Of a stretch of 64,000 bases of DNA, positions 11,326 through 13,708 are shown piece by piece. The position numbers and the translations under genes are program-made. The notes under the pieces are model-generated. The model had not been told where the DNA came from and ran no database searches. It saw only the letters and a list, made by a program, of their open reading frames with translations. The stretch is from Escherichia phage ELT1. Every line of letters starts with the position of its first letter. Position 1 is the first letter of the stretch. Where the stretch lies: sequence record MZ892903.1, one strand, 5' to 3'.

Positions 11326-11454
11326 TTGTGAAAAAATTTTAAAAAGTTTTGGGGAATTCTAGGGCAGGGAGGGGAAATCAAAGGATAGGATAATATATTA
11401 TAAAGGGTAGAAACTAAATGATGCCTAGAGAGGTCCAGAAAGGCCTAGATACCA

Positions 11455-11482
11455 AAAAGCCCCAACCTTTCGGTCGGGGCTA
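11455..11482 (-). terminator. rho-independent terminator (minus strand)
   Basis: Minus strand reads GCCCC-GACCGAAAGGTT-GGGGC followed by TTTTTGG. Confidence 0.5.
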
Positions 11483-11531
11483 AGCCTTGCGGCAACCTTG
11501 TCGGGGTTCCACCTGCTAAGGCAAGTGTTTG

Positions 11532-11623
11532 TACGAAACGCCGGGATTCGAACCCGGTTATTAAGTAGTTGACGCTACTCAATATTTTTAAAAGGCCATA
11601 TCTCGACCATATCCGAACGTTCC
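11532..11623 (-). ncRNA. tRNA-like structured RNA (possible T4 species-1/2 stable RNA counterpart or tRNA remnant)
   Basis: Perfect T-arm CCGGG-TTCGAAT-CCCGG, 7-bp acceptor pairing CGGAACG/CGTTTCG, variable-arm hairpin GTAG-CGTCAA-CTAC; no convincing D or anticodon stem. Confidence 0.35.
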
Positions 11624-11787
11624 GTCAAAAACGCTACTCGGCTTACGGCAAAGATATTTCCTCGAATCGATAATTCGGTGCGCCGTTTCTGCTGTGATAG
11701 TAAAGAATCAGAACACAGTAAAACTGTGGGAGAAACTATACTCCAGGGAACATCAGTCCGACGACTTACCGGTAGCGACCCGGTTTC

Positions 11788-12138
11788 TTAATATTCTTTT
11801 AAAGCATCAACCTGTTCACGACGTTTACGCCATAAATCAATTGCTTCATACGCGGATTCAGCATTTCGAATTAGCCGGCATTTATGTAAAGACTTATGAT
11901 TTTGATATTGTGTAGATAACGGAATTGTATCTAAAAGGTCTTTACGATCAAAATATTCGTAACCATCTAAACCAAATGAACGATTTTTGAGAAATTGCCA
12001 ATGACCATATTCGTTTTCGACATAAACATAATCTGCATGCTGATAAAGCAAATTAATTACACGTTCAGAAATAACAGTATCATTATGATTAAAATAGAAT
12101 GTTAAATCATGAACTACTAAATAAACATTACCTTTCAT
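11788..12138 (-). CDS. hypothetical protein
   Basis: ORF 11788..12189; better RBS (GAGGA) before internal Met at 12138. Confidence 0.4.
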   Translation of the reverse strand: MKGNVYLVVHDLTFYFNHNDTVISERVINLLYQHADYVYVENEYGHWQFLKNRSFGLDGYEYFDRKDLLDTIPLSTQYQNHKSLHKCRLIRNAESAYEAIDLWRKRREQVDALKEY

Positions 12139-12217
12139 ATTTTCCTCACTTAAAGTTGGTGCCTCTAGAAAGATTTGAACTCTCACCATTAACCTTAGAA
12201 CGATTATATGCTATCCA

Positions 12218-12889
12218 TTACACTATAGAGGCAATTAAATTATTTACAATATCTTCTTTATAAACTTCAGCATAATGAAGTTCATATATTTCCCATCCTA
12301 ATGATTTTATAATATCATGGCGTTCTTTATAATAAGGGGCCAAAATCTTTTTCTTAGGATTGGAGTAATGTTGGTTTCCATTAACTTCAATAATAATCTT
12401 TTTATCTATTAAAGCAATATCCGCGCAATACGCTCGGTTTTTAACCGGTTGGTATTCTTCAATAAATGAAATTCCGTTTTCTATTAATTTAGATTTCAAA
12501 AATTCACAAGGCACAGATTTAAATTTTGTATTTTTCTTCCAAGGATGTTTATCGGGGTTTTCATTCAACCATTTTTTCCGAGCATTAGATATTTTTATTC
12601 TAGATTCCTCAGAGTGTTCTCTACCTAATGAAGCGGCTGACCATTTTTGTCTAGTCTCTTCCGAAATTACTACAGGAACACCAGTCTTTTTAGATACAAC
12701 ATACTGGTTTAAATTACCTGAAGCTATACGTGCTTTATTCATTGCTGCAATGGCTGATTTAGAACTTTCTTTATACAATTCCAATTTAGGGTTGGATTTA
12801 CACCATCTAGTGTGGTTAGCCATCCATCCTTTAGGTTTATTAGAAATATCAAATTCCATATTACAATGTTTACAAATTCTCATTACCAA
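12218..12889 (-). CDS. putative freestanding homing endonuclease: N-terminal Zn-finger-like, NUMOD3 motifs, C-terminal Vsr/DUF559-like (PD-(D/E)xK) domain
   Basis: 223 aa; CKHC...HTRWC; NUMOD3-like LGREHSEESRIKISNARKKW; C-terminus ...YCADIALIDKKIIIEVNGNQHY...ERHDIIKSLGWEIYEL; no GIY-YIG motif although it sits where T4 has segB. Confidence 0.55.
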   Translation of the reverse strand: MVMRICKHCNMEFDISNKPKGWMANHTRWCKSNPKLELYKESSKSAIAAMNKARIASGNLNQYVVSKKTGVPVVISEETRQKWSAASLGREHSEESRIKISNARKKWLNENPDKHPWKKNTKFKSVPCEFLKSKLIENGISFIEEYQPVKNRAYCADIALIDKKIIIEVNGNQHYSNPKKKILAPYYKERHDIIKSLGWEIYELHYAEVYKEDIVNNLIASIV

Positions 12890-12957
12890 TTATCTCCTAT
12901 AAAATATAGGAGTATTTATTATTTGGATAGAGCACTTAATTTACTTCGTTTAAATTA

Positions 12958-13029
12958 CTGGCGCACTTGGACTCGAACCAAGATAAAGGAGTTAACAGCT
13001 CCCCGTAATAACCTTTATACGATGCACCA
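12958..13029 (-). tRNA. tRNA-Asn (anticodon GUU), 3-bp D-stem, no encoded CCA
   Basis: Manual fold: acceptor TGGTGCA/TGCGCCA (one G-U), T-arm CTTGG-TTCGAGT-CCAAG, anticodon loop CTGTTAA. Confidence 0.55.
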
Positions 13030-13035
13030 TTTGTT

Positions 13036-13110
13036 TGGTGACCCTGGCTGGTTTCGATCCAGCTACCTATCAGTTATGAGCTGACAGCTCTCCCATTGAG
13101 CTACAGGGCC
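13036..13110 (-). tRNA. tRNA-Ile (anticodon CAU, T4 tRNA-Ile type; Met/Ile formally ambiguous), CCA encoded
   Basis: Acceptor GGCCCTG/CAGGGTC, anticodon loop CTCATAA, T-arm GCTGG-ATCGAAA-CCAGC. Confidence 0.7.
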
Positions 13111-13116
13111 TTGATA

Positions 13117-13189
13117 TGCTGATTGACGGAATCGAACCGCCGACGTCCTCATTACAAGTGAGGTGCTCTACCTACTGAGCTAAATCAGC
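13117..13189 (-). tRNA. tRNA-Thr (anticodon UGU)
   Basis: Cloverleaf GCTGATTTAGCTCAGTAGGTAGAGC...CTTGTAA...GGTTCGATTCC... Confidence 0.8.
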
Positions 13190-13196
13190 GAAATTA

Positions 13197-13283
13197 CGGA
13201 GGCGATAGGATTTGAACCTATGAGTCGCCGGAGCGACTGCCGGTTTTCAAGACCGGTGCATTAAACCACTCTGCCACGCCTCC
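13197..13283 (-). tRNA. tRNA-Ser (anticodon UGA), long variable arm
   Basis: Reverse complement matches T4 tRNA-Ser as recalled (GGAGGCGTGGCAGAGTGG...CTTGAAA...). Confidence 0.9.
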
Positions 13284-13285
13284 AG

Positions 13286-13359
13286 TCTCCGTGGCAGGAT
13301 TTGAACCTACGACATTCTGCTCCCAAAGCAGACGCTCTACCAAACTGAGCTACACGGAG
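13286..13359 (-). tRNA. tRNA-Pro (anticodon UGG)
   Basis: Acceptor CTCCGTG/CACGGAG, anticodon loop TTTGGGA, T-loop TTCAAAT. Confidence 0.85.
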
Positions 13360-13369
13360 TAAATTAAAT

Positions 13370-13443
<74 letters not shown>

Positions 13444-13448
13444 AAATT

Positions 13449-13535
13449 TGGTGCGAGAAGTGGGACTCGAACCCACAAGGAAATCATTCCGCAGCATTTT
13501 AAGTGCTGTGCCTTTACCAATTTGACCATTCTCGC
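13449..13535 (-). tRNA. tRNA-Leu (anticodon UAA), long variable arm, CCA encoded
   Basis: Acceptor GCGAGAA/TTCTCGC, anticodon loop CTTAAAA, T-arm GTGGG-TTCGAGT-CCCAC. Confidence 0.85.
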
Positions 13536-13536
13536 G

Positions 13537-13609
13537 CTGGGAATAAAGGACTCGAACCTTTGCATCTAGCAGTCAAAGTGCTATGCCTTACCAACTTGGC
13601 TAATTCCCA
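13537..13609 (-). tRNA. tRNA-Gln (anticodon UUG)
   Basis: Acceptor TGGGAAT/ATTCCCA, anticodon loop CTTTGAC; 1-nt spacer to tRNA-Leu (dimeric precursor arrangement). Confidence 0.85.
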
Positions 13610-13675
13610 ATTATTAACAAAGGCTCTCAAGCAAGAACCCTTGATGATAGAGGGTATTAATCAGTGCGGTATGAG

Positions 13676-13708
13676 TTAATAATAACAAATAATTCTTAAA
13701 GCAAATTA
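13676..13708 (-). promoter_or_regulatory. possible MotA-dependent middle promoter for the tRNA cluster
   Basis: Minus strand reads TTTGCTTTA (Mot-box-like), 12 nt, then TATTAT; about 60 nt upstream of tRNA-Gln 5' end. Confidence 0.25.

Follow-up and report, generated by a model that had tools for sequence, protein, structure and literature searches.

What occupies, beside the transfer RNA (tRNA) genes of Escherichia phage ELT1, the place that belongs to segB in T4-type phages, and how did it come to be there? The question was addressed in a stretch of 64,000 nucleotides (nt) of this phage (MZ892903.1), hereafter called the window. At the end of a cluster of nine tRNA genes, an open reading frame (ORF) on the minus strand lies between tRNA-Asn (12958-13029) and tRNA-Arg(tct) (12157-12232), in the same interval, upstream of tRNA-Arg, that is filled by segB in T4-type phages. 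We consider it likely that this gene encodes a free-standing homing endonuclease, still putative, with a Vsr-like fold derived from the PD-(D/E)xK nucleases. The original prediction, made from the sequence alone, had proposed both a real 223-amino-acid (aa) ORF beside the tRNA cluster and a non-GIY-YIG endonuclease gene in the segB-equivalent slot, and both proposals held. The ORF is genuine. As listed, it runs from a TTG (12218..12889, 223 aa). An ATG at 12883-12881, two codons downstream of the TTG at 12889, lies 10 nt past a GGAG Shine-Dalgarno sequence and yields 221 aa, the length of all close homologues; because of this spacing and these lengths, the ATG was taken as the more plausible start. 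The coding sequence of the putative homing endonuclease is thus given as 12218..12883 (minus strand; 221 aa plus a TAA stop at 12220-12218), and residues of the protein and its homologues are numbered on the 221-aa form.

The protein lacked a GIY-YIG motif, as had been predicted: Pfam gave no GIY-YIG match at E ≤ 10 and BLASTP against SegB from the same slot of another phage found nothing, while that SegB itself scored GIY-YIG at 30.7 bits. Pfam Vsr was likewise without a match at E ≤ 10. DUF559 (PF04480) scored 21.8 bits, above its cut-off of 20.6, RAP (PF08373) scored 23.8 bits, just under its cut-off of 24.2, and MTES_1575 was weak. Among 27 homologues, with matches counted at E ≤ 0.01, RAP was matched by 24, MTES_1575 by 12, and DUF559 by 11; the RAP matches reflect the shared fold. 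Because the homologues split over these three families, the nuclease part appears to fall between several families of one fold class and not within any single one. An AlphaFold2 model built on the 27 homologues had a predicted local distance difference test score (pLDDT) of 85 overall and of more than 90 over residues 120-221, which were part of an alpha/beta C-terminal domain. Foldseek returned 3r3p_B as the sole match to the model at E ≤ 1e-3, and by this model the closest structure is that of a DNA homing endonuclease. The fold was also Vsr-like in the comparison with the Vsr structure 1cw0 (15% identity). A search of PDB sequences with the family profile gave no match at E ≤ 10, and the nuclease half alone gave only noise against PDB sequences (3hrl at E 1.7). 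Since these sequence searches of solved structures gave nothing, the link to known enzymes rests on the fold comparison and on hhalign. The Vsr/DUF559-fold nuclease suggested for the C-terminus was supported by the DUF559 score and by the Foldseek match.

The remainder of the protein consisted of modules presumed to contact DNA. The N-terminal Cys/His cluster noticed in the original prediction corresponded to a CCHC zinc-finger module (C4, C7, H24, and C28; 12800..12874, minus strand) that was conserved wherever homologues have this N-terminus; the model placed a small beta-hairpin and a helix around the four residues, with a pLDDT of 92-95 over residues 1-40. Two NUMOD3-like helices, presumed to be DNA-binding, followed at residues 73-85 and 86-105 (12569..12667, minus strand). 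The claim of NUMOD3 motifs was upheld in part: helices were predicted over both motifs (residues 75-85 and 92-108 of the model) and NUMOD3 was matched by 7 of the 27 homologues, but the score of the protein itself (18.9-19.0 bits, residues 87-103) fell just under the Pfam cut-off of 20.4. A clade-specific segment, N109-P-D-K-H-P-W...K-F-x-S-x-P-C-E127...K130 (12494..12559, minus strand), leads into the nuclease domain (12221..12526, minus strand). The putative active site of this domain comprises E143, D155 (12419-12421), E166 (12386-12388), N168 (12380-12382), H172/Y173, and R188.

The conservation of these residues was determined in an alignment of the protein with 245 retrieved homologues (246 sequences in all). 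E143, D155, E166, N168, G169, Y173, W115, and S123 were present in all 246 sequences, H172 in 245, Q171 in 244, and R188 in 241; H113, C126, and K130 were conserved in more than 98%. The core of DUF559 reads E-x-D-G-x-x-H, with Asp at the third position, and this Asp was replaced by Asn in 246 of 246 sequences. In the comparison with Vsr, N168 stands at the position of H64, and an F-W pair preceding the His is missing. The core of I-Bth0305I, which is gp29 of Bacillus phage 0305phi8-36 (sequence taken from the phage genome), is N-V-D196-F-Y-L-G-K-K-L-A-I-E206-V-N208-G-V-Y-W-H213. Aligned by hhalign (E 3.5e-4, with a probability of only 37%), the two proteins pair P-C-E127 with T-P-E171, D155 with D196, E166 with E206, and E-V-N-G with E-V-N-G. 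The metal-binding Asp (Vsr D51, I-Bth0305I D196) and the invariant Glu at the Vsr Phe62 position are therefore matched by D155 and E166. It had been suggested that the E-V-N-G core might mean altered or lost catalysis. Because N168 is found in all 246 sequences and the same core (A-I-E206-V-N208-G) is found in the active I-Bth0305I, this suggestion was abandoned; judged by the alignments, E-V-N-G is a conserved core of the active type with no mark of decay. The clade fits best as a sister group of the EDxHD enzymes within the Vsr/DUF559 fold group.

Homologues of the endonuclease were found by tblastn in 33 of 50,697 phage records (11 E. coli phages, 10 Rhizobium, 6 Klebsiella, 3 Acinetobacter, and 1 each of Enterobacter, Providencia, and Citrobacter), compared with 871 phage records that have the flanking tRNA region in common. 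The distribution of the gene is sporadic. An empty site was observed in Klebsiella phage KpV477 (Jiaodavirus), where GACGCACCA, the two bases AA, and GCCCTTATAGTGTAATGG follow each other, that is, tRNA-Leu (ending in CCA), a 2-nt spacer, and tRNA-Arg. In Klebsiella phage Shark_ER15, the cassette (TTGTGCTCTATCC...TATAAATA...ORF) lies exactly in this AA spacer, and the flanks are approximately 97% identical. Aligned with each other, the two phages represent a natural empty and filled pair with a clean insertion, the 5′ end of which is marked by GTGCTCTATCC. This conserved box (12925..12935 in the window, minus strand) forms the 5′ edge of the inserted cassette and is common to the window, Shark_ER15, and Mosigvirus DCP548. 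By analogy with I-TevI, GTGCTCTATCC was also considered as an operator and compared with the 5′ end of tRNA-Arg; no convincing similarity was found, and the idea was dropped.

In the window, the gene is part of a mosaic. The segment containing tRNA-Met, tRNA-Asn, the endonuclease gene, and tRNA-Arg (12135..13116) was 98-100% identical to Mosigvirus Mizar-type phages, and the adjoining 11700-12134 was merely 52-84% identical to Mizar. Positions 11600-12160 and 13099-13700 were approximately 98% identical to Tequatrovirus ESCO58, in which no match to 12161-13098 was detectable. The junctions were located just beyond the 3′ ACCA of tRNA-Arg and inside the first 14 nt of tRNA-Met. The tRNA-Asn(gtt) gene (12958..13029, minus strand), a variant allele apparently brought in with the cassette, was 100% identical to that of Mizar-type Mosigviruses and of Gelderlandvirus SEA1; in SEA1, this tRNA-Asn* lies beside a different tRNA-Arg allele. 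The tRNA-Met(cat) gene (13036..13110, minus strand; right-hand recombination junction within its first approximately 14 nt) is of the Mosigvirus type. Because this tRNA-Met allele is the resident allele of Mosigviruses that do not have the endonuclease gene, such as LH01, the transfer would have run from a Mosigvirus-type to a Tequatrovirus-type genome. The gene thus seems to have carried three tRNA genes in from another phage genus, and the near-identical cassette in two genera argues for recent mobility. No phage record had the full arrangement of the window (0 records covered at least 80%), and an empty tRNA-Asn*/tRNA-Arg* site was not found among the E. coli phages of the phage record collection.

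Decay, loss, and conservation of the gene were all observed. The copy of PTE-Eco05 (PQ306573.1, 25959-26622) aligned as two segments, with 664 nt in place of 663, was annotated as two ORFs, and is probably frameshifted. A deletion scar was found in Mosigvirus G2285 (locus L016, approximately 1490-1640): G2285 and the window do not differ in tRNA-Asn, in the promoter box, or in the 5′ half of the hairpin, after which the G2285 sequence jumps into the downstream gene, with loss of the endonuclease ORF and tRNA-Arg. The ratio of nonsynonymous to synonymous substitutions (dN/dS) of the endonuclease was 0.07 against DCP548 and 0.24 against Klebsiella, with dS saturated; estimated in this way, the protein appears to be under purifying selection across genera.

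The gene was consistently found next to tRNA genes. All five T4-like phage homologues of other genera that were examined adjoin tRNA genes (5/5), and in the T4-like phages examined the gene was always 45-75 nt downstream of a tRNA (Asn, Leu, Asn, Arg, or Met). All ten metagenomic homologues sampled from long contigs were beside tRNA genes (10/10), mostly within tRNA clusters; tRNA-Arg(tct) ended 53-55 nt upstream of the ORF in three of the ten and 2 nt upstream in a fourth. Because only approximately 3% of the window lies within 250 nt of a tRNA, the association is far beyond chance. Thus, the homologue contexts examined all adjoin tRNA genes, often tRNA-Arg(UCU). The tRNA-Arg genes that adjoin the endonuclease gene share the D-arm TAGTGTAATGGATAGCA, which T4-type and LH01-type alleles do not have. 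The tRNA-Arg(tct) of the window (12157..12232, minus strand; called by ARAGORN and scoring 56.3 bits with the Rfam tRNA model) is a variant allele, "Arg*", which was found (at least 85% identity, blastn of phage records) only in phages carrying the endonuclease gene. As a clue to the target, the I-Bth0305I consensus TTNG-N6-CNAA was considered; it occurs at the 3′ end of tRNA-Leu in KpV477 (TTCGACGCACCAAA), but the allele with the gene still has it, and it is missing from the window and from DCP548, where the contexts are Asn and Met; it was therefore rejected.

The ORF and tRNA-Arg also overlap. Positions 12218-12232 are both the last four codons and TAA stop of the endonuclease gene and the first 15 nt of tRNA-Arg, so that the stop codon is nt 13-15 of the tRNA. 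The same 15-nt overlap was found in the Klebsiella copies and in two distant metagenomic homologues, with a tRNA(cta) in L018 and a tRNA-Arg(cct) in L022. Processing by RNase P at position +1 of the tRNA would strip the stop codon from the endonuclease messenger RNA (mRNA).

Several variants of these arrangements were observed in homologue-bearing loci. In Mosigvirus DCP548 (locus L007, 2157-2218, plus strand), the fused tRNA-Arg was degenerate (no ARAGORN call; partial Rfam match of 37.6 bits), and the ORF was intact. The metagenomic protein P0029 of L022 (2001-2801) had a reversed order, with the nuclease first and Cys-rich and helix-turn-helix-like parts after it, and ends 15 nt into tRNA-Arg(cct). 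Clusters holding a homologue included CTA-anticodon tRNAs (amber-suppressor type, "Pyl" in ARAGORN) in L018 (2613-2687) and L025 (4315-4403), and in L018 the endonuclease ORF terminates inside the CTA tRNA. A group I intron (54.8 bits with a cut-off of 50 in Rfam) was found in L026 (3041-3236, minus strand), approximately 80 nt from the homologue ORF and beside a tRNA-Cys gene.

Upstream of the ORF, a T4 late-promoter-like box, AATAAATA (12913..12920, minus strand), matched 7 of the 8 positions of TATAAATA. ATAAATA was invariant upstream of the ORF in five aligned loci of five genera, and the exact TATAAATA was found at the same place in the Klebsiella, Mosigvirus DCP548, Providencia, and Acinetobacter copies. 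Immediately downstream, the hairpin CUCCUAUA-UUU-UAUAGGAG (12894..12912, minus strand) pairs the Shine-Dalgarno GGAG (12894-12897) with the sequence right after the promoter box. Its predicted stability was -8.8 kcal/mol (z -2.3); the hairpins of the homologues had z of -2.9, -4.5, and -3.3, with that of Providencia weak at -1.2, so that hairpins over GGAG were found in four of five loci at z -2.3 to -4.5. Scans for sigma-70 promoters and terminators were uninformative. An own promoter with a hairpin that sequesters the ribosome-binding site (RBS) is known for I-TevI-III, segB, and mobE (PMC2988022), and the endonuclease gene appears to fit this regulatory pattern of T-even homing endonucleases, from which we infer the late-promoter role of the box.

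These observations are compatible with the following course of events. Transcribed from its own late-promoter-like box, and with its RBS hidden by the hairpin on read-through transcripts of the tRNA cluster, the gene would be translated mainly late in infection. The zinc finger and the two NUMOD3-like helices would lay the protein along DNA, and the C-terminal nuclease, probably as a dimer as in I-Bth0305I, would cut by means of D155, E166, N168, and H172/Y173. The insertion sites suggest, as the target, a tRNA-gene boundary of gene-less co-infecting phages, most likely at or beside tRNA-Arg(UCU). Repair of the break from the gene-bearing genome would introduce the endonuclease gene and, with it, the linked tRNA alleles, a process that would leave the sequence pattern observed. 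The carrier itself may escape cutting, either because its site is split by the insertion or because its linked tRNA-Arg allele is a different one.

Several points weigh against a homing endonuclease of this kind. Across the 246 sequences, there was no conserved acidic counterpart of the last Asp of EDxHD (Vsr D97, I-Bth0305I D222): position 187 was E, N, K, or D and position 190 was D in 141 of 246, with R188 conserved in 98% instead. The His that serves as general base (Vsr H69, I-Bth0305I H213) was in register with the invariant Y173, and H172 faced a Trp. A HMMER sequence search for a link with I-Bth0305I found nothing, and the hhalign probability was the low value given above. The insertion contexts vary by genus, the upstream tRNA being Asn, Leu, Arg, or Met, and the promoter box of the window, like that of every Mizar-type copy, is off consensus (AATAAATA), possibly a sign that the E. 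coli phage lineage expresses the gene more weakly. Finally, ordinary recombination between co-infecting phages, with no targeted break involved, could in principle also have produced the mosaic, and cleavage activity, target site, and expression timing in the clade are what we infer rather than observe.

The same evidence bears on three other explanations. A site-specific nickase, whose nicks near tRNA genes would stimulate recombination as those of Vsr or of the T4 HNH Mob enzymes, would agree with the Vsr-like fold of the endonuclease, because Vsr nicks DNA; moreover, I-Bth0305I nicked most of its non-optimal sites (PMC3239194), and T4 MobA-E have been described as nickases (PMC13096335). 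At its true site, however, I-Bth0305I cleaves both strands as a homodimer, leaving 2-nt 5′ overhangs (PMC3239194), and we regard a pure nickase as unlikely. A relic, domesticated or inactive, that has kept DNA binding (as a repressor, for example) and lost cutting could be argued from the N in place of the D of E-V-D-G in DUF559, from the variable last EDxHD position, and from the imperfect promoter box of the window. The Asn, however, is invariant in the clade and shared with an active enzyme, the remaining putative catalytic residues are invariant, and the nearly identical cassettes of two genera point to recent movement; a relic is quite improbable.

An RNA-acting protein similar to RAP, binding or cutting a tRNA precursor, would explain the constant position in tRNA clusters. 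It is contradicted by the sporadic, clean presence and absence of the gene among close relatives whose tRNA clusters manage without it, by the existence of decayed and deleted copies, by DNA-binding modules typical of homing endonucleases, by the predicted late promoter of a gene whose neighboring tRNA genes are read earlier, and by a best structural match that is a DNA homing endonuclease; we give this explanation very little credence. The homing endonuclease thus remains the preferred reading, and it was compared with known systems.

In 2009, Dassa described putative homing endonucleases of the Vsr-like kind that are free-standing; in two of these, tandem NUMOD-3 motifs precede the nuclease, and an invariant Glu at the Vsr Phe62 position was noted (PMC2677866). 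In 2011, Taylor characterized I-Bth0305I and defined the EDxHD family, which includes Hef of T-even phage U5 (PMC3239194). The pairing of NUMOD with a Vsr-like nuclease, which the original prediction had called uncommon, is therefore a published architecture, and the design is already known. It is also widespread: a profile search of 1.84 billion cluster representatives (clusters at 50% identity) yielded 1994 proteins at E ≤ 1e-3, 889 at E ≤ 1e-10, and 503 at E ≤ 1e-30, the last being the 503 clusters of the clade, and many matches span the full length of the endonuclease. The annotation of phage Mizar already lists NUMOD3 and DUF559 for its copy. Compared with I-Bth0305I, the loop after N-G is shorter by one residue (N-G-N-Q-H-Y vs. 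N-G-V-Y-W-H), as in DUF559; the endonuclease has a CCHC zinc finger and NUMOD3 in place of NUMOD2/helix-turn-helix; and its targets appear to be tRNA-gene boundaries and not protein-coding genes. DUF559 (e.g., NGO0050, PDB 3hrl) and RAP have Asp where the clade has invariant Asn, and these families are bacterial chromosomal or eukaryotic organellar, without NUMOD, zinc finger, or a mobile-gene distribution. Another protein of 0305phi8-36, gp194, was considered as I-Bth0305I and rejected, being a different, shorter protein that shares the clade motif. This "homing nuclease" (locus L014, 14861-15373, plus strand) has 170 aa, a Cys-rich N-terminus, and the clade signature E-M-N-G-R-Q-H-Y, and it matched the family nuclease profile at E 3e-6 within a 50-kb stretch.

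The closest functional parallel is T4 SegB (PMC2330249), with which the endonuclease shares the slot upstream of tRNA-Arg, a length of approximately 221 aa, a NUMOD3-like motif, and a late promoter (predicted here) with an RBS-sequestering hairpin; SegB drives, and the endonuclease appears to drive, co-conversion of neighboring tRNA genes. In contrast, the catalytic domains are unrelated (GIY-YIG in SegB, Vsr-like here), the nuclease is N-terminal in SegB and C-terminal here, and the segB gene does not run into a tRNA gene. A further relative, the uncharacterized gp150 of Citrobacter phage CkP1 (Karamvirus; locus L008, 1504-2139, plus strand), also adjoins a tRNA cluster. Its zinc finger and NUMOD3 region are homologous (27% identity over 184 aa, E 2e-14), but its nuclease differs, matching phage endonuclease I with a canonical P-D...E-V-K motif, and in this alignment gp150 looks like a nuclease-domain swap on a shared DNA-binding module.

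The view that the tRNA locus has been invaded repeatedly by different mobile nucleases agreed with what was found in different phages: segB in T4-type phages and in Mosigvirus p000v, a T5orf172 ORF, the CkP1 endonuclease I-like protein, and the Vsr-like gene. The T5orf172/MUG113 ORF (177 aa) lies in KpV477 between tRNA-Arg and tRNA-Thr (locus L009, 1963-2496, minus strand), one slot from the place of the Vsr-like gene in sister phages, and is a second candidate mobile nuclease.

Elsewhere in the region, PADLOC gave no match. Downstream of the tRNA cluster, the intergenic stretch 11400-11700 (minus strand) had a very stable predicted fold (-105.7 kcal/mol, z -4.5) with a T-arm-like CCGGGUUCGAAUCCCGG and a terminator-like hairpin. 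It matched no Rfam family at threshold, yet it was conserved in 760 phage records; presumably, it corresponds to the stable RNAs species I/II of T4.

As far as the literature searched shows, the tight link of the clade to tRNA genes, the ORF-tRNA fusion, and the cross-genus cassette of the window are new. In the classic segB slot, a second, unrelated nuclease family is found, so that a niche with what appears to be the same late-promoter and hairpin control has been colonized convergently. The window also provides a natural case in which a tRNA-gene cassette left a genome of the Mosigvirus type and entered one of the Tequatrovirus type, accompanied by a putative homing endonuclease gene. Recent work has shown that phages evade tRNA-cleaving defences with the help of SegB and of their own tRNA genes (PMC13096335), and the cassette transfer bears on this work. 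We tentatively suggest, as a possibility still open to considerable doubt, that the clade (E-x-N-G-x-Q-H-Y, approximately 500-2000 clusters) is a homing lineage specialized on phage tRNA genes, which recognizes and travels with one type of tRNA-Arg(UCU), moves tRNA alleles between genera, and has its dose tied to tRNA processing. If so, the alleles moved would include possible counter-defence tRNAs, and the recurring arrangement in which nt 13-15 of the tRNA supply the stop codon that the ORF itself lacks would link dose to tRNA processing, with RNase P cutting the mRNA before the stop. If the clade recognizes tRNA-gene boundaries, it would represent a compact nuclease of the Vsr type whose targets belong to a predictable class, and it would help to explain how the tRNA repertoires of phages are shuffled.

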